The translations under genes and the position numbers were made by a program. DNA of 63,109 nt, counting the filler, from Rhabdomonas costata (Eukaryota): the NCBI GenBank assembly GCA_019059605.1. It is 39 parts of 39 records of this genome, joined end to end, with 100 filler letters (N's around TTAATTAATTAA, not from the genome) between each part and the next. Parts side by side here need not be neighbours in the genome. Positions count along the whole stretch, not along the records: positions 8,108 to 9,629 come from JAHMHO010013906.1; 38 more parts are not named here. One strand, written 5' to 3'. Every line of letters begins with the position of its first letter. Positions within the stretch are counted from its first letter, which is position 1. Positions 4,650 through 56,628 of the stretch are shown here, piece after piece. Under the pieces are notes generated by a model. The model saw only the letters and a list, made by a program, of their open reading frames with translations, ran no database searches and was not told where the DNA came from.

Positions 4650-5000
4650 GTGTTGCTTTCTGTCTGCTTGCCCAATATCAGTATTTAATGTTCAGCGAAT
4701 TGGGTTGTGACCCGTGATCTCAATTCCTGAACATTAAATACTGATATTGGGCAAGCACACACCCACNNNNNNNNNNNNNNNNNNNNNNNNNNNNNNNNNN
4801 NNNNNNNNNNTTAATTAATTAANNNNNNNNNNNNNNNNNNNNNNNNNNNNNNNNNNNNNNNNNNNNTTGGGTTGGAGAAGGGAGGGGAGGGGAAAGGTTC
4901 TCTCTTTCATTTGCCATTGTAATGGGCTGGTCGTCCTCTGTTGGCGCGGTGGTCTCTGGTTCTGTCACTTTAGTTACTTTTTTCGCTCTTCAATTCCAAG

Positions 5001-8107: not shown

Positions 8108-9628
8108 TTTGTTGTTTATTTAGTAAAAAATCAAAAGATGTATTAAATAAAATAAAAAATGTTTTATTAAAAGACACAGCTAATAAATTATATATGTCAT
8201 TAAATGATGTATATATTTTTCCATCATATAATGACATATATAATTTATTAGCTGTGTCTTTTAATAAAACATTTTTTATTTTATTTAATACATCTTTTGA
8301 TTTTTTACTAAATAAATAACAGACTGCATCTAAAAATGTATTTTCATCTAGACCACATTTTAAAAAATATTCAGATGTATTCACTAAAAAATTTTGTGTC
8401 ATTTTTATTTGTTTTGATAAAGTTGTATTCAAAAAATAATCTAAAAATTTCGGAAGAAATGCTAAACGTCCATATGTAACTTTATTTGTATCTTGTAGTA
8501 TATTATATATATTTTTTATAGTATATATATTAATTAATATATAATATAATATATTTTTCACATCATATGTTTGAGTTTCTTGTTGTTGTCTATTTTGTAA
8601 TGATGATAAATAAAAATCTTTTATTTTTTTATTTTTTGATAAAATTTGATCTTTTTTATAACAACAAGGCATCGGACATTTAAATGGATTTTTACTTTTT
8701 GTTAAAAATCCAATAAATGTATATTCACCATTTGATTTCGGATCACATGCATAATATAAATATTTATCAGATTTATTTTCATCATTACCACAATCATATA
8801 ATTTAATCATTTTTAATGTTTTTGTTTGTTTTCCCATTTTTACTTTTTTTTTTCATATATTCCTGTTTCTTGGTTTAGTACATAACCATTTTTTAATAAC
8901 ATGTTAATATCTTTCTCTGAATATTGTTGAGGTATTCGTTTCTGTTTTCCATTATTTTGACATGCACGTGACCATTGTGTTTGTCCTTCTTCTGGTTTAA
9001 AACCGATACGTTTTGTGTCCGTTTTTGTCATTTGTTTTATACTTAATGTTTTTGTTTCATGTTGTACAATGACATTTACTTTATGTCTTCTTTTAGCAAC
9101 ATTTACTAATTTTTCAATACTTGATATCTTATTTTTCACTGTTTGATTGTTTTTTATGTACATCTCAACATAAATATATATAACTTTATTCAAAAACAAT
9201 AAAATTTTATCAAGTTGTTCTTTATCACGTGATCCAGATATTCTTATTTTATATTTACTTGGTTCTTTACCTTGGATATCAATACCAATACCTGGTAATT
9301 TTTGTTTAGGTAATTCATCCATTCTTTTTAAAACTTTTCTATTTTTTCGTATTATTGTTGCTTGTTGTAATACTTTATTTATTTCAAGTTTTGCTCTTGC
9401 TTCTGTTATATTAAATTGTTTACTAATTTCTTCTGTTAATGTAGATATTGTATATTCATAATTTCTCAATATGTACATAATTCTTTGTACTATTCTGATT
9501 TGATCATCATATTTTGATATTCTTTTATATCTAAGATATGTTCCAAATTTACCAATTTCATCCTCACTTTGTTGTTTTGATTGTCTTTTTCTTGGATTGA
9601 TTACAAGTGATACATATGGAAAAAAATA
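8108..9628 (-). CDS. NCLDV (Mimiviridae-like) early transcription factor VETF large subunit, internal fragment, frameshifted at an A10 run (~8844-8853)
   Basis: Very AT-rich, intronless contig with motifs FFPYVSLVINPRKRQSK, GTYLRYKRISKY, KIRISGSRDKEQL, QWSRACQN, GFLTKSKNP, MPCCYKK and ILQDTNK, which I recognise from mimivirid VETF-L. Confidence 0.8.
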
Positions 9629-9882
9629 ANNNNNNNNNNNNNNNNNNNNNNNNNNNNNNNNNNNNNNNNNNNNTTAATTAATTAANNNNNNNNNNNNNNN
9701 NNNNNNNNNNNNNNNNNNNNNNNNNNNNNGGGTTGGTGTGTGTTTGGGGTGTGTGGTCTTCTTCTGTATACCTGCCCACCTGTGCTGCTTCGTGTGGTGG
9801 GTGCTGGCCTGATGACACAATTGCTCTTGTTATTAGCCTTGACGTTGTGGCGCCACATCTTGCACCCACTTCTCGTTTCCAG

Positions 9883-32904: not shown

Positions 32905-33660
32905 AATCACAGTGCAGCAGCAAGAAGTGCATCCGCGATGCAGCAGCGAATGCTACCGCTAAGGTCACGCCGTACAGTTCCGCCGTCTGTTGGGCGTCAT
33001 GACCGCGGCGTAGCTTTCCAGGAGTTGAGGTGGAATGGTGGCCAGCTGCAAAGACCCACAGTCCCGCTTGCAGCGCAGGCGTCGGAGATGAGGATGTGCA
33101 GACCACCGCACTCGGCAGCACCCTAACGTCAGCGAAAGGGCGAAGGACCACAGCCTCCTCGAAAGCCCGCCTGAGCAGCTCGTACCCAGCATGCGGTACG
33201 CCCCTTGGAGTGCGCGTGCCGACCCGTGAAAGTGGTTGGCAAACGCAGCCCAGCCCAGCATCCTGCAATGTTCGGCTGCACACAGCGGGCTGCAGCAGCG
33301 AACAGCCCAGTGAGTTGGCGGCGGCGGTCGGGTGTGCTGGACACCAGGCGGTGTTCGAAACGCTTGCCGATCCAGTCGATCATGAGCGTGGGCTCCAGCA
33401 CGCACTTGTGGAGTGAGACCAGGAGTCCACATCGATTTAGATATGCGACGCAGGCTTGCGTCGCAGTGCGGAGCAGGTCGGGGTCTGGCGATGCAAGTAT
33501 CAGGTCATCATAGTAGACCCAAGGTAAACCCCCGGTAAAGTTGGCCAGCGCGGCGGAGACGAGGCGCTCCATCTCCTTCTGCGCCAGGACGGGTGCCCAG
33601 CTCCACCCGAAGGGAAGGCGTTGCCAACGCCATTGGGTGCCCGCGTAGGTAAACACGAAG
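32905..33660 (-). mobile_element. Degenerate DIRS-like (tyrosine-recombinase class) retrotransposon RT-RNase H fragment
   Basis: WQRLPFGWSWAP..AQ, YYDDLIL, GLLVSLHKCVLEP, IDWIG, then frameshifted RNase H motifs ILISDAC and QQTAELYG..LHCD. Confidence 0.85.
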
Positions 33661-34887
33661 GGATGTCTATCCTGCTGGAAGGAGGTGCGCGCGGTCCTGG
33701 GGATGCAGGGAAAGCGGGTGAAAGTAGGCGGAAATGTCCAGTTTCGTGTAGAAGCGTGTAGGCCACCAGCGTGTGGACGCGGCGAGGGATGAGGTTGAGG
33801 GAAGGCGAAACGGTGGTGGTCTGAGTGTGTATAGAGCGTTCAGAGGACGCAGATCGCAGATGACACGTGCGGAGTGAGCGTCCTTTGCGATCTGCGTCCT
33901 CTGAACGCTCTATACACACTCAGACCACCACCACCNNNNNNNNNNNNNNNNNNNNNNNNNNNNNNNNNNNNNNNNNNNNTTAATTAATTAANNNNNNNNN
34001 NNNNNNNNNNNNNNNNNNNNNNNNNNNNNNNNNNNTGTTTGTGGTGGAGAAATGCTTCGCTACAGAAACAACGTCCGCCAAAGGAAAAATTTCCTACCGC
34101 GGGCGTGCTAACAACGTTTCGGAAGGCCTAAGGGATATGCAATTACCCCCCAGCGACTTCGCCCCGTTGTTCTGCGCTGTTTGATGATGTTTTCACTACT
34201 TTCTGACGGGAGGCATGAACATGTTACAGAGTGACGCCGTCCTGCTGAGAGGCGATCGTGGTGGAGGCGACGGTCCTCTTCTATTTGTGTACTGTTGAAC
34301 ACTTTGGATAGGGTCAACCCATGCAAAAGATAACAGCAAAGAGCACAGCCATCTCTCGGGCGGAAGGATGCTCCACATCCGTGATGCAGCATTGCCCATA
34401 CGTGTACGAGTTGTGCAGAACAAGGAGAGACGTGTTTGGGTTTGTGAAGCAGAGACTCTGGAAACACAGCGACACACTCGTGGTGCCATGGGCGCCCGAC
34501 TTAGTGCGCGCGACCGGAGAATTTTCAAGGTGTTGGACGTGCCAACCCAACCGACGAGCAGTGCCACAGCAGCGGCAGGTCAAATCGGGCTTCTGCAAAG
34601 CAACTGCGACATGCCATCAGATGGGCGGGGGTCACCACGGTCCAGAAACCGAAGACCTCGTGTCAGCGGATTCTGAGAACCCCCCCACCTGCCTGCGTAG
34701 AGAATCGAAATGGAATTCGAACCCACCCAACACTGGAATCTTGGCAGCCCGCCATCAACATGAGTGCAGAGCAGTGGAAAGCGAACAATCGCAACCAAAC
34801 AGGATAGCAGCAACCTCAGGATCGATGAGTACTTCCTCCCAGCCAATGACTCGGCTGTTATACTTTCGGTCTCGGGCGACGGAGTTG

Positions 34888-38898: not shown

Positions 38899-40418
38899 TT
38901 TGTGTTGGCCAGGGATGTCTGCGTAACCACCCTCCTGGTCTCGAGAGGGTGGTGTGCATTGAAGGGGAGGTGGAGATTGTCAACCCTTCCGAGACCAGGA
39001 GGGTGGTTACGCAGACATCCCTGGTCAACACAAAACTCACCTTAGATGAGGCGTGACAACGGCTTCTCTACTGTGCAGTCTCTGCTGTACATGTGTGGTC
39101 TGCCTTTTTTCGGCGATTTCTGGGGGAGTAGGGATGTCTTCTTGATTTGACGTCTATGGAGGTGGTATCCAAGAACTTCAAGAAAATGCCATGTTGCCCG
39201 AATTTCCAGGAAGTGGCAATCTGCGTTTACAACGTCAACCGGACAAAACCCAAGGAACCCTGCCCCCTCCAATTCTCATCAAGTCGCGGGGTTTACGTTG
39301 TTAGGTTGGGGTGGACGGATAGATTCAGGTGCGCAACAGTTTGTTTCCGCTCCCCAAGAAATGAGCGCTCAAGCCGCAGATACTTCGCAAGCAATTGGCC
39401 GGGACCTGCTCCCCACGCTTGCGCCCGCACACACGCACACACACACACAATCACAAACAGTCCGCCTCTTCGCAAACTCTCACAACCGCTCCCTTGTGAC
39501 GGTGTTGATGGTTTTATGTCTCAAGTCGCTGTCGACGGAGTTACCTTTGTGTTCCTTTGTTGGTTTTCAGCAGCGGAGGTTCTGTTATTGTCAGCAAAAT
39601 GGGAAAAGCGAAAGCCGCGCGAGTACCAGTGGTCACCCGCCGGCTTGCGCGGCTGCTCCGCCCCAGCTGACGTGCGCATCGTTCTACAAGTTTGTGAAGC
39701 TGAGCAATCTTCCAGAGCTCCGGGATGAATTCCGCACGGCCTGCGCCCAACTGGGCATCATGGTGTGTTCTTCCGAAATGAGGTTGAAGTGGGTCTTTGT
39801 GAGAGTGACTTCCCTCCTTTGGCAGGAAGAAAAACCGGGGGGTGGGGGTCCTTGAATCTAGGGAGGCCCATCAAATTGTCCACCAACGCCACCAAAATGT
39901 GTGTTCAAATCCAGAGATGGAGGTATTGCCACGTAATTTCGCCCAAATGTTGTGCTGAAATCTAAAGAAAGTGGCCGAGGCATTTGCAATAAAAACCCAC
40001 AAACGCTGCGTTAAGTATGAACGATGGACCACCAGTGCCGAACTTGCTTGCTCCTGCTGAGCGCATAATTCACACTTTTATTGCATTAGCAGACGACAAT
40101 CTCGCCTTTTGCAGGATACGTGTAAAAGGCGTGGCAGCTGTGCTCGTAGCAAGAAGTTGTGAGCGTTTCGAGATTCCCGCAAAATAATCCCTTGAGCTGG
40201 AAATGCAAGACACGTTTATTCCATCCCGCCTTCCACAGAAGAAAACCATAGAGATAACACAGAAGCTGTAATTTCATTCTTCCGCCCTGAGACCCATTCA
40301 AATTCCCCGTCAGGTGCCACACTACTGTGACGGGGAATTTGCAATGGGTCTCAGGGCAACATTCTTCTGGGCACCGAAGGGATCAACTCCCAGATTGCGG
40401 GCTCCGAGGATGCCACCC
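38899..40418 (+). CDS. TrhO/YceA (UPF0176, TSTD2-like) rhodanese-family protein fragment; exons include ~39571-39762 and 40355-40418
   Basis: SFYKFVKLSNLPELRDEFRTACAQLGIM|GNILLGTEGINSQIAG matches the UPF0176 N-terminal motif FYKF...C..L..GxILLAxEGIN. Confidence 0.8.
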
Positions 40419-47013: not shown

Positions 47014-48532
47014 ACGTAGGTTGAAACATTTTTAAGAAATCATAATGTTTTGTAATATTGATATCATAAAAACTGCTATTAAAACCAAGTACAGGGAATT
47101 GAAACCATTTTTTAATTTTATTGATTTCACGTTGCTTTTTGAATTTTTGGTTTTTGTCGTCGAATGTAAATATTATCTCATCATCGTCTTTATACAAAAT
47201 GAAACAATCATCTTCTTTAATCATTTTTTCTTTCTTTATCATTTTCATTTTAAGATTATTTACCAAATATTGTTTAATATATGGGTAGTATTCAGCTATT
47301 ATTTTCTTATAAGCTTTCTGTTGCGCATCATACATACAATCTACTAATGATTTTATGAGAATATTTGTATCTTCATTAACAACGTGTATAATTTCATTAT
47401 TCATATTTGTACCAAACGAAAACGAGATAGGGACTTGTTTGTTCAGTAAAGTTGTGTTTTCGCCTTTCTTTTTATTAACTTCTAAAGCTATAGACTCAAA
47501 ATCAAAAACAGCAAAATAAGGATACATAAAAGATTTTGTTTTACATTTCGAAAAATCAAGTATTTTCTTCATTATATTATTGTCGTGTGTAAATTCTTCT
47601 ATTTCTGCTGGGAAAACATCTTTATAGAGTTCTCCGCATTCACCTTTTTGATGATTAACTAATGTATCAGCTCTGCTAAATGTTTTCATGCAATTTTCGC
47701 ATCTAAATACTTGGCATAGTTTATTTATATCCTTGATGAGAACAAAATGATCTTCATACAATCCTAAAATCATCTTATTATCTTCTTTTTTATTAATAAT
47801 TCTATTTCTTATAGCTGTTATACTTTTTTCCTCGATTACGAGATTATAAACATTGATTGAAATATTAAAGAATAATTCAATATTTTCTATTTCATGCATG
47901 TCAATACCTTGGTACTGTTTGTGATTAATTTCTTTTTCATTTTGGTTGTAATATTTGTAAAATAGTTCTTTTGATATTTTAATAAGTTTTTTATTTTCAA
48001 TATTTGGATTATAAAATTTAGCTAAACATCGCCAAAAACATAATTTATCGTCTTCTTTTGTTTGAATATTAAGTGCAGTATAGATCATCTTTGAATTTAA
48101 TAGTACATCTGGTAATTGTATCTGTGCACCTATTGGATCATGAAGTTGATATATTTTAACAAACATTTGATAAATTCCTATTGCTTTTGTGTTTGAATTT
48201 TTACTTCCATCAATTGTTTTTGTGCTAAATTCCGCATAATCAAGTAAATTTAGTTTTTCAATGAGTTTTATTAAATCATTGCCATTTCGTATTAGCATTG
48301 GTTCTTTAAGTAATCTTGTATCATCACAACCATTGCCTATACTATACGTATATGAAATATCAGACCAAAGATCATCATTAACATGAACTGTCTCAAAAAC
48401 GTAACCATATGATACATTAATTTTAAATGCGAATTGTTGGGCATTGTATACTTTTCTAATGTTAGTTTCAATATCTTTATATTTTCTTATATTATTAAAA
48501 AATATAGATGTGATATCTTTGTAATTTTGAGT
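47014..48532 (-). CDS. Protein-primed family B DNA polymerase N-terminal/exonuclease region (Polinton/Maverick/adintovirus-like) with a C2H2-like zinc finger
   Basis: AT-rich contig, open in one frame throughout: FAFKINVSYGYVF, DDKLCFWRCLA, LYEDHFVLIKD, CENCMKTF..LVNHQKGEC, ExoI FAVFDFES, ExoII VLGFNSSFYDIN. Confidence 0.85.
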
Positions 48533-48933
48533 GANNNNNNNNNNNNNNNNNNNNNNNNNNNNNNNNNNNNNNNNNNNNTTAATTAATTAANNNNNNNNNN
48601 NNNNNNNNNNNNNNNNNNNNNNNNNNNNNNNNNNGAGAGAACGAGTGTGCGATAGAGGGATGCCCATGTTTTTCCTGCATACTGCGCCCACTGATCCATT
48701 AAAGGGCCACCGTGTGGATCGTGTGGGTGTCCAACCCTGCACGAAAAGCCCGGGCGACAAGTCGCAGCGACCCGAATTTTCGCCTTGCAAGGACTTACAA
48801 TCCCCAAAATAAAAACATGCAACATGTGCCAAAAAAATCATTACCCCTCCTGGCTCCTGACCCCTGACCCGTAGCGACAGACGACATCATCCCTTTGCTT
48901 GAAAAAAGGAAGCAGCGGGAAGTCACGAAATAC

Positions 48934-50831: not shown

Positions 50832-52045
50832 TGCAAGCCCTAAACGTGCACCATTAACGGAGCATTCAACGTTTCTTGTATTTATTCTTCGATTCCAACC
50901 GAGCCCATGAAAATGGGAGGAAATCCCCCTTGCAGGAAGGAGAAATAAAAACCAACGGTACAACACGATATTCTCGAAGACCGAAAAGGGAAAAATCACA
51001 GGAGAATCCTACCAGGTGCAGTGGCATGGGGTCGGCCGGCTTAAAGGCACAAGGAAAGCTAACCCTCGATACACCCCGAAATCGAGAACTTAGTCCGTAA
51101 CGCTTCGAACTGAAGTCTTTTTGGCGTGTTTTTATGCCGCTAGGCTTCGGTGGCATATGCTGTTTCTTGGCGAATTCGCAAGGTTGTAAACTCTCGATTA
51201 TACGGTGTAGCCTAAAAGGGTGACGAGAGATCCCCGAGGGGCAACCTGAGCAACCTGACCAACCTGAGCATGCGTAAAACCCAGCAAGTAGCAGGTGATG
51301 ACATATTCACGTGGGTGTGAATCTGGGAACCAACAACCCCCCGGGAGCCATTTCAGACCCAAACGTTTCAGCCTCACGGTCGTTAATCAGCGTTTCCCCC
51401 GTTTTGATGCCTAACTTGGTTGATTCCGTGCTGAAAGGTTCCTTCGTTTCAGTGCCGCCGAAGCTGCTCGCCCGACTCACCTCACCATCTTAAAGCGCAG
51501 GACTTTCCCACCCACAGAGTCACAATTGTGGAGGCTGTGGATGAGCTTTCCTCAAAAAGCGTCCCCTAACATCCTTCGTTGTAGCCCCCTCAAGCGACAA
51601 GGGAAATACCGCAGACCAATATTCTGTCGAACAGTTGAATGAGGAAACGCTCGAAGGTGAGCCAGAACCATATTTAAGGGCATCCTTTTTACTTTAGTTG
51701 CGGAAGTTCAAAGGGCGGGAGAGGTAGGGTCTCGAGAAGGAAAGGTCTCGAGACCCCACCCCCCCCNNNNNNNNNNNNNNNNNNNNNNNNNNNNNNNNNN
51801 NNNNNNNNNNTTAATTAATTAANNNNNNNNNNNNNNNNNNNNNNNNNNNNNNNNNNNNNNNNNNNNGACAAGTTCAGACATTAAGCACAAAACCGCGCGG
51901 CTTCAATCTTGTTGTGGGAACCAAAACCTATCTACACTTTAGAGGTTTCGGGTACCAAAATACTATATACTTTGGCATCTTGATGAGATTCGGGCATGGA
52001 GCTAATATGCAACTTAAGACGACCAAAGAGGAAAAGGGGAAAAAA

Positions 52046-53110
52046 ATGAAGGATATTTTTATCAGTGGTCTGCATAAACAGATATACTAAGGAAATAAAC
52101 TAAGAAAATAATAAAAATTTATAATATGAGTAATACAAATATTCTCAACATAATATACAATGAATTTTTCAAACGACTATAAGATGAAAATTGCCACGTG
52201 GGAAAAGAAGCTGCCAGAAATTGTAAAAGACGACAATTATAAATGGATAGTAAAGAATCATAAGAAAACTTATTCATAATAATTGTAATACATTTACATG
52301 TATTATGAATACACACATGATGAACACATTACGTGTATGAATATATAACAACACATCATGAGAACAAAAACACGTTAAAAGGGCGCATATCAGTGTTTTC
52401 TGGAATTCTGAGAGAATTAGATACACTGAAGAATTGAAATATTCAAAAATAGCTACCGATCTTAATTGAGAGTTACAGGCCGAAAGAAAACAAAATTTTG
52501 TTTCCTCTGACCGAAAGCAAGAAACAAGAATTGTTTCCACAGAGGAAACAAAAATTTGTTTTCTTTCAAGATGTTGTGAAACGTCGTGAAGACTTATTCG
52601 AACACGATCAACTAGCAATAATTTGAGCTGGGTTTTACTGAGTTTTTACACAATGCAACCACCAATAAGAATGGAGTACAAAAACATGAAAGCTGTCACC
52701 GCACTTCCCAAAAAACTAAACAGAATTCTCTGCTGCGTAACAAATAAATACGAAGTAGTTATTCGAGACGACAAAGTTGTTAAGAGCCATGGACCAGATC
52801 AATTTGAGTTATCTGATGAATAGAACAAAGTAATAAATGAAGCATTGCAAGCGTTTTCAAGAAAATATCTATTATCTGCTCAACGTAATAGGAGTACCCA
52901 ATAAATGAAAAGGGCCTGAATCTTTATTGAAACAGTGCTTCAGCCCCCAAAAAGTATCCGTTAATCCGTTAATATTCTGATATCTAGTTATATTACGAAT
53001 TCCTATTCTGATCCAAGGATGACATTAAAAATGAAAAATGAACTGGCGCGAAAGATGCGACACTGTGCGACGATAGCTCAACGTGAATACCCAAAAATTG
53101 ATGTATCGAA
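52046..53110 (+). pseudogene. Decayed tyrosine recombinase/integrase of Polinton-like virus/virophage type
   Basis: AT-rich; across stops and frameshifts it reads LLSFYTMQPPIRMEYKNM (catalytic R), IRDDKVVKSHG (K), VSVNILISSYIT (LRxSYIT with R>I, interrupted by an 8-bp duplication TCCGTTAA), ELARKMRH (H) and REYPK (Y). Confidence 0.7.
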
Positions 53111-53488
53111 CGCTGCTCATCCTGATAATTTAGTATAACTTCACGCATGCAACCGCAACAAGAAGTTACACCCCAATTGTTATTGAACCCAGGGAGTATT
53201 TCTTGCTCTCACGTTATAGTTGTAACACTCCACCCAGTGTCGCAAGGGCTGGGGTTATGACCATTATGCCTATTTCGAAAGCATACATGCTTTCTAAAAT
53301 TTGGCATAATGTTCATAATGGTTGTGGACCGTTATTAGAACTTTCCTGGATCATTCCCAGAACATTCCTAGATCGTTCCCACCCCACNNNNNNNNNNNNN
53401 NNNNNNNNNNNNNNNNNNNNNNNNNNNNNNNTTAATTAATTAANNNNNNNNNNNNNNNNNNNNNNNNNNNNNNNNNNNNNNNNNNNNT

Positions 53489-55935: not shown

Positions 55936-56628
55936 TTATGCCCGTTTAGGCTGCTGCCGCCTCTGCCGCAGCAGCTCCTCCACTGCTACGTGGCCGTTCT
56001 GCCGCGCCCACTCCTCTGCGCTGACCCCGTTGTTGTCTTTTGCCACCGAGTTCGCACCGGAATCTGCCAGCATCGCAGCAATCTCACGGTGCCCTTTCTT
56101 CGCAGCGGCGATCAGAGGAGTGGTTCCCAGGTCCGTTGCTATGTTGACCTCGGCCTGGCTGTGGAGCAATGACTCCACGATTTCGAGATGGCCATTCTGA
56201 CAGGCCATGAACAGAGCAGTGACCCCAATCACCGACGCGCGGTTAACGTCGGCCTGGTTGTGCAGCAGCAGCTCCACGGTGTTGCGGTGGCCATTGTCGC
56301 AGGCTATATACAGAGGCGTGCAATTTCTCTTCGTCGAGAGGTTGATGTCGGCCTGGCTTTTCAGCAGCAGCTCCGCCGTGTCACGGTGACCCTCCTGGCA
56401 AGCGATGAAAAGAGGCGTGTGCCCGTTGTTGGCCCCCAGGTTAACGTCGGCCTGGCTGTGCAGCAGCAGCTCCGCGGTGTCGCGGTGACCATTCTGGCAG
56501 GCAATGAAAAGGGGCGTGTATCCATCCTTCTGCGCACGATGCAAGTTTGCCTGATGGAAGCAAAGCTCAGCCGCGGCCGCGGTGTGTCCGTACCGCGCTG
56601 CGAGGTACAGCGGAGAGCACCCCCCCCA
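55936..56628 (-). CDS. Ankyrin-repeat protein, C-terminal part (about 7 repeats), intronless here
   Basis: Repeated GxTPLFIACQNGHRDTAELLLHSQADVN units; the frame is open from the contig edge to the stop at 55936. Confidence 0.95.
   Translation of the reverse strand, partial: WGGCSPLYLAARYGHTAAAAELCFHQANLHRAQKDGYTPLFIACQNGHRDTAELLLHSQADVNLGANNGHTPLFIACQEGHRDTAELLLKSQADINLSTKRNCTPLYIACDNGHRNTVELLLHNQADVNRASVIGVTALFMACQNGHLEIVESLLHSQAEVNIATDLGTTPLIAAAKKGHREIAAMLADSGANSVAKDNNGVSAEEWARQNGHVAVEELLRQRRQQPKRA

Follow-up and report, generated by a model that had tools for sequence, protein, structure and literature searches.

A contig with part of a Mimiviridae-type early transcription factor gene, likely from a giant virus sequenced together with a GC-balanced eukaryote

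Here we describe a contig of 1,522 bases that carries part of a gene for the large subunit (VETF-L) of the viral early transcription factor, and that we read as DNA of a Mimiviridae-type giant virus, sequenced along with a GC-balanced eukaryote. The DNA likely came from virus present in the sample and not from an insertion into the host genome, a reading to which we give a probability of roughly 0.7 and which we favour over a recent host insertion, itself rather unlikely. An exogenous origin is preferred because of two features only, namely the base composition of the contig and its near-intact reading frame.

The window, by which we mean the whole stretch of 63,109 bases that was analysed, is made up of 39 separate contigs of 1,511-1,532 bases each, set apart by spacers that consist of N runs around TTAATTAATTAA. 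The finding concerns one entire contig, positions 8108-9629, with such spacers on either side. The initial annotation had rightly taken it as a contig of its own, while placing its end at 9628, one base short of the true end at 9629. Its GC content is 21.7%, whereas that of the other 38 contigs lies between 25.4 and 57.3%, with 36 of the 38 within 43.9-57.3%, which bears out the contrast drawn earlier between a very AT-rich contig and GC-balanced neighbours (21.7% versus about 52% GC). That it lies amid host DNA is true of the list of contigs only, as there is no physical link to the adjoining ones. No GC-rich or host-like stretch occurs within its 1,522 bases, a length of 1.5 kb being short enough for a junction to lie further out.

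Two open frames are found on the minus strand of this contig, of 262 and 248 codons, which together encode about 475 residues. When the contig was shuffled 2,000 times, the longest open frame had a mean of 69 codons and a maximum of no more than 153, so these frames are not a matter of chance. The first (8843-9629, 262 codons) runs uninterrupted from 9629, the end of the contig, to a stop codon at 8840-8842, and would encode a hinge, the second of two TBP-like lobes and the helices that follow. The second opens at 8852 and continues to the other contig end, and its 212 codons at 8217-8852 hold the P-C-C motif region, a TA-rich insert and what appears to be the start of an OTU-like fold. The change of frame falls within a run of ten T at 8844-8853 (A10 on the coding strand of the minus-strand gene), the sole homopolymer of at least 8 bases in the contig. 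This is the only frame break, with no stop codons elsewhere in the approximately 475 codons, in keeping with the single frameshift in an A10 run that had been proposed. Relatives continue across the place of the break, as seen in alignments to two of them (P0003 and P0129), and a homopolymer length error or slippage is its most likely cause. Because both pieces match adjacent stretches, in order, on the same proteins, we consider them to be one gene with one frame break and no intron; the earlier description of the gene as intronless holds, both frames being collinear on one protein without an intron-sized gap.

For the sequence searches, the first piece (window positions 8840-9628, minus strand) was compared with proteins of 460-2,000 aa at E <= 0.001. 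It matches 788 proteins, the best with an E value of 3e-86 and 57% identity. Among the best 120 of these 788 matches, most are 1,800-2,000 aa long, and some are encoded on contigs as long as 1.3 Mb. With the second piece, 148 proteins were retrieved at E <= 0.001 by exhaustive HMMER searching, the majority matched at positions of about 850-1,300 in proteins of 1,600-2,100 aa. When BLASTP was run against proteins of at least 900 aa, 223 were matched by both pieces, and in the best 15 of these 223 the two matches are adjacent and in order. In P0003, the first piece aligns with residues 714-975 (59% identity) and the second with residues 980-1187 (39%), the latter also aligning with residues 937-1136 of P0129 (40%). 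The two pieces are thereby collinear with the middle of a protein form of about 1,900 aa, as for the long VETF-L of the Mimiviridae type, and the AT-richness of the contig fits these viruses as well. Of the gene for that long form the contig holds about one quarter, and it differs in its single frame break and in the TA-rich insert, which is in frame.

Among the matches listed, the closest relatives are metagenome proteins, with at most 59% identity in the first piece. The labels found among 30 relatives are 'viral metagenome', 'Megaviridae environmental sample' and, in one case, a metagenome-assembled genome (MAG) of a 'Magnetococcales bacterium'. In a FastTree phylogeny of 196 region sequences, from which named isolates are absent, the window sequence groups with P0129 and P0137 at an SH-like support of 99. 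Its end branch in this tree measures 0.60 against a median of 0.22, placing it at rank 40 of 196. Averaged over 192 relatives, identity to the window sequence amounts to 52% for region 1 and 37% for region 2; the averages for family members are 60% and 48%, respectively. As diverged as the window sequence or more so are 28 of the 192 members in region 1 and 10 of the 192 in region 2, and a lower ratio of region-2 to region-1 identity is seen in 4 of 192. From these alignments, the gene appears to be a fairly divergent member of the family, the second part of which, with the TA-rich insert, seems to have evolved somewhat faster. An ordinary divergent virus could show such a pattern, which fits relaxed constraint only weakly. 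Open frames far longer than those in shuffles, and a terminal branch that at 0.60 is not unusually long, count as support for the gene having recently been under selection.

What, then, identifies this family as the large subunit of the early transcription factor? The link to poxvirus VETF-l is thin when judged by sequence, and it is structure, together with two weak sequence matches, that carries it. One of these is the match of the second piece to Pfam PF04441, at 15.1 bits (E 0.007) and thus under the cut-off of 25 bits; as this model is named for the poxvirus protein, a miss by a distant branch is not decisive. The other is to vaccinia VETF-l (6rfl_K), where the second piece aligns weakly with residues 412-450, which include the P-C-C motif, and 476-523 (E 0.008). 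PF04441 gave no match for the first piece, nor for five full-length relatives scanned singly at E 0.01, and a profile of 32 family members compared with PDB sequences retrieved no VETF-l chain at E <= 1. In the ESM Atlas the first piece found no usable match, and for the relative P0101 the automatic cluster names read 'early transcription factor large subunit', without taxa.

For the structural comparison we used an AlphaFold model (m1ea7f13ac3af; 835 aa, pLDDT 82.4) of P0200, a relative that corresponds to residues 434-1230 of P0003, to which it is 39% identical, and that contains the whole of the window fragment. The first piece corresponds to about residues 286-546 of the model, in which a TBP-like fold spans residues 96-443. 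Foldseek against the PDB returned vaccinia VETF-l (7amv_K) as the best solved match, with an E value of 4.7e-9, followed by TATA-binding proteins. With VIA-align, the TATA-binding proteins reached Z scores of 10.1-11.7 over 173-185 aligned residues within model residues 92-443, the best aligning 181 of 181 residues with model residues 99-443 (Z 11.7). Alignment to 7amv_K gave a Z score of 10.5 over 428 residues, and for a VETF-l segment (8rqk_K, residues 365-463) 98 of 99 residues aligned to model residues 490-625 with 26% identity (Z 9.1). The P0200 model is therefore similar overall to the solved vaccinia protein, on the evidence of 7amv_K and 8rqk_K, and displays a bipartite TBP-like domain with an extended hinge, of which the window covers the hinge and the second lobe only. 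Such a domain, with two lobes joined by an extended hinge, is what a passage of PMC12917281 describes for VETF-l, which works with the TFIIB-like Rap94. As far as a predicted structure goes, the assignment of the family to the VETF large subunit is settled by these comparisons, and with it the identity that had been read from motifs in the initial annotation.

Residues of about 640-835 in the P0200 model, downstream of the P-C-C segment, resemble the domains of OTU deubiquitinases, with Z scores of 9.1-10.8 over 127-135 aligned residues, and the window at about 8217-8580 covers the start of this OTU-like fold. We know of no report of an OTU-like domain in the VETF-L of Mimiviridae.

Structure also places the gene within the family of viruses. 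In BFVD, the P0200 family model matched Moumouvirus 'Monve' (E 6e-77, 35% identity) and mimivirus R327 (E 5e-72, 35%). The Mimiviridae entries, which also include Gaeavirus, Megavirus courdo7 and a Megaviridae environmental sample, lie at 25-40% identity, those of Moumouvirus, mimivirus R327, Megavirus and Gaeavirus at 28-40%. Entries of asfar-like, marseille-, pitho-, irido- and poxviruses lie at 8-18%, a range that also includes Pyramimonas orientalis virus, Tetraselmis virus and ChoanoV1. We furthermore modelled the window's own first piece with AlphaFold (pLDDT 74.1). At E <= 0.001 this model has six matches in BFVD, all six to Mimiviridae proteins and at 34-51% identity: Megavirus courdo7 (48%), mimivirus R327 (50%), Moumouvirus (48%), a Megaviridae sample (34%) and Gaeavirus (51% and 44%). 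With mimivirus R327 (Q5UQR4), Moumouvirus 'Monve' (H2EE59), Megavirus courdo7 (H2EBH8/H2EBH7) and Gaeavirus (A0A3G5A329), the first piece shares 44-51% identity at E values from 2e-6 to 3e-22. The suggestion of a Mimiviridae-like gene is upheld by both models, as all six matches of the first-piece model and the higher identities of the P0200 model (25-40% versus 8-18% elsewhere) agree on it. With the vaccinia protein A7 or VETF-l (7amv_K, 6rfl_K and 8rqk_K; PF04441; NCVOG0261), the family has in common the hinge-split TBP-like fold, the P-C-C segment and the order of domains. The vaccinia protein differs in its length, of 710 aa versus about 1,900 aa in the family of the contig gene with its long extra N- and C-terminal regions, and overall its identity to the P0200 family model is about 12-14%.

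That the family as a whole is viral is further indicated by the DNA on which its members are found. Relatives with 45-51% identity are encoded by five IMG/VR loci, four of which bear the names of giant-virus bins. A search for the NCLDV major capsid family gave three matches each in a 315-kb contig (L003) and a 1.1-Mb giant-virus bin (L004), and no match in 14 control genomes. MutS, a hallmark of Mimiviridae, turned up in one of two searchable records that bear homologues, which lends weak support. In the cluster of P0040, one member is split into proteins of 1,355 and 526 aa (MBA42836.1 and MBA42835.1) on a 137.6-kb contig of the 'Magnetococcales bacterium' MAG. We infer that this is probably a giant-virus contig that was mis-binned into a bacterial MAG. 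An excerpt of PMC3493329 lists A7L/VETF-L as NCVOG0261, present in five of six families and with 'no obvious homologs outside NCLDV', which accords with the earlier claim of an NCLDV core gene that lacks a cellular counterpart. The check for best hits to cellular proteins, which had been put forward as a possible refutation, likewise came out in favour of a virus, given that the strong matches listed form one family with virus labels where named, the one Magnetococcales MAG excepted.

Two features of the contig deserve separate mention, as they bear on how its sequence is to be read. At 8499-8554, on the minus strand and in frame with the gene, is a TA-rich tract of low complexity, amounting to an insert of 14 residues relative to the nearest relative, P0129. 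Tandem Repeats Finder describes it best as a period of 18 with 2.9 copies and 78% matches, and alignments to both P0129 and P0003 show a gap opposite the tract. The initial annotation had reported a small AT-rich duplication at about 8498-8552; an AT-rich tract is indeed present, and is better described as an in-frame insert of low complexity. At the left end of the contig, the stretch 8110-8209 is a reverse-complement copy of 8222-8321, forming a fold-back with arms of 100 nt that are 98% complementary (two mismatches) and a loop of 12 nt. Homology to the relatives can be followed through the right arm (8222-8321) and across the loop, and stops within about 10 bases of the inner edge of the copied arm, at residue 1187 of P0003. 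The left 110 bases or so of the contig are accordingly a fold-back that is not collinear with viral sequence. A script scan of all 39 contigs found fold-back inverted repeats at 0-5 nt from a contig end in five (1401-1520, 4661-4761, 8108-8323, 33812-33932 and 38899-39034), four of which are GC-rich, with arms of 35-95 nt or more and loops of 26-46 nt by the script's figures. Because five of the 39 contigs have a hairpin of this kind at an end, the one at the left end here is most likely an artefact of assembly or library preparation, and no property of the virus.

Among the other contigs of the window, a second AT-rich one (47014-48534, 25.4% GC) has a single frame of 506 codons on the minus strand that is open from end to end and encodes a C2H2 zinc finger. 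This frame is 56-59% identical to about residues 135-631 of ENA proteins that are 972-1,283 aa long, and its identity to proteins from Caenorhabditis briggsae and a sea cucumber is 25-29%. In one distant relative there is a match to Pfam PF03175 (protein-primed DNA polymerase B), and the relative P0274 has a Y-x-D-T-D-S motif downstream, as read from alignments. Going by these sequence matches, the frame looks like the N-terminal half of a polymerase of the Maverick/polinton, virophage or linear-plasmid type; it is virus- or transposon-like and not an NCLDV core gene. A third contig of low GC content (51867-53387, 35.4%) has no open frame of more than 123 codons and no Rfam match, and indeed no Rfam family was matched in the whole window. 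For eight ORFs of the GC-rich contigs, the only Pfam matches above cut-off were to a reverse transcriptase and to ankyrin repeats, and a sixth ORF had two weak sub-threshold matches, to RLL and DUF6107. The reverse-transcriptase fragment lies at 33129-33839 on the minus strand (RVT_1, E 9e-10), with matches to two ENA proteins, one of them 70% identical, and the run of ankyrin repeats at 55936-56628, also on the minus strand.

Where did the viral gene come from? A giant endogenous viral element, recently inserted into the host nuclear genome and starting to decay, would account for the frame break as a real frameshift, as a decaying insertion is expected to show one too. It would also suit the somewhat greater divergence of the second piece compared with most relatives (a lower mean identity is seen in just 10 of 192 members, and a lower region-2 to region-1 ratio in 4), and the contig sharing its end-hairpin artefact with host contigs. 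Giant-virus insertions are moreover in print for the euglenozoan Euglena gracilis (PMC12455990), although the elements described there belong to the Asfuvirales and are not of the Mimiviridae type. Set against such an insertion are the lack of host-like sequence in the 1,522 bases, a GC content of 21.7% versus about 52% with no amelioration, some 475 codons that are open apart from the homopolymer where shuffles average 69, and a terminal branch that is not unusually long. On balance we regard an endogenous element as improbable, if clearly worth keeping in mind.

The contig may also be viral and yet unrelated to the sequenced organism, having come from a virus whose host was some other protist in a non-axenic sample, or by carry-over from other libraries or reagents. 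With respect to the nature of the DNA it falls under the virus reading that we favour, and we hold it to be a tentative option, ahead of the host insertion. In its favour, this is the only contig with an NCLDV core gene among the 39 of the window, and the metagenome proteins that are its closest relatives reach at most 59% identity among the matches listed. Nothing speaks directly against it; the common end-hairpin artefact shows only that the contigs went through the same assembly process. AT-rich contigs in protist assemblies are often organellar, and with a Pfam match that stays below threshold one might think of an AT-rich cellular or organellar gene instead. We reject such a non-viral origin as next to inconceivable, in view of a family whose strong matches as listed carry virus labels where named (the exception being the one Magnetococcales MAG label), best named structural relatives that are Mimiviridae proteins, and the NCLDV-only listing of NCVOG0261 in PMC3493329.

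By our preferred reading, the contig would be a genuine genome fragment of a giant virus of the Mimiviridae type (order Imitervirales), co-assembled with a GC-balanced eukaryote. The fragment would represent about 475 residues from the middle of an early transcription factor large subunit of about 1,900 aa, spanning the hinge, the second lobe of the TBP-like domain, the P-C-C segment as the best conserved part and the start of the OTU-like fold, and the gene would be orthologous to mimivirus R327 and distantly homologous to vaccinia A7 (VETF-l). If vaccinia is a guide, the full protein may pair with a helicase subunit of the D6 type, use its split TBP-like domain to bind viral early promoters, and recruit the viral RNA polymerase that is packaged in the virion. 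The source of the DNA could be a virus that infects the sequenced organism or a co-occurring one, or particles that had been taken up. That the virus infects the sequenced organism itself, and that this organism is a euglenozoan other than Bodo, we would call a long shot.

Giant viruses of euglenozoans have seldom been described. According to a 2021 review (PMC8061765), no DNA virus of Euglenozoa other than Bodo saltans virus has been documented, and for Discoba as a whole it is the sole documented infecting giant virus according to a 2025 paper in J Virol (PMC12455990). By its published description (PMC5871332), this member of the Klosneuvirinae (Mimiviridae), the one giant virus isolated from a euglenozoan, resembles our contig (21.7% GC) in its low GC content relative to the host, with 25.3% versus approximately 50%, and it encodes an early transcription factor that is thought to read the motif AAAAATTGA. 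For Euglena gracilis, the 2025 paper describes eight insertions of Asfuvirales in an eroded state (PMC12455990), which are giant-virus DNA in a euglenozoan assembly. These Euglena elements are integrated and eroded, however, whereas the contig is of the Mimiviridae type, with an almost intact frame and no host junction in its 1.5 kb.

The contig is a further member of a known and large giant-virus gene family, and as such a lead and not a discovery. Its practical value is that of a flag, in that the low-GC fraction of the assembly needs to be binned and screened before its contigs are counted as host DNA. If the assembly is euglenozoan and the virus truly associated with it, the contig would give a lead to another host of Mimiviridae. 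Were the virus to infect the sequenced organism, this would make a second pair of giant virus and host in Discoba, of the Mimiviridae type and distinct from the Asfuvirales relics of Euglena gracilis, and the AT-rich contig at 47014-48534 could then belong to an accompanying virophage- or polinton-like element.
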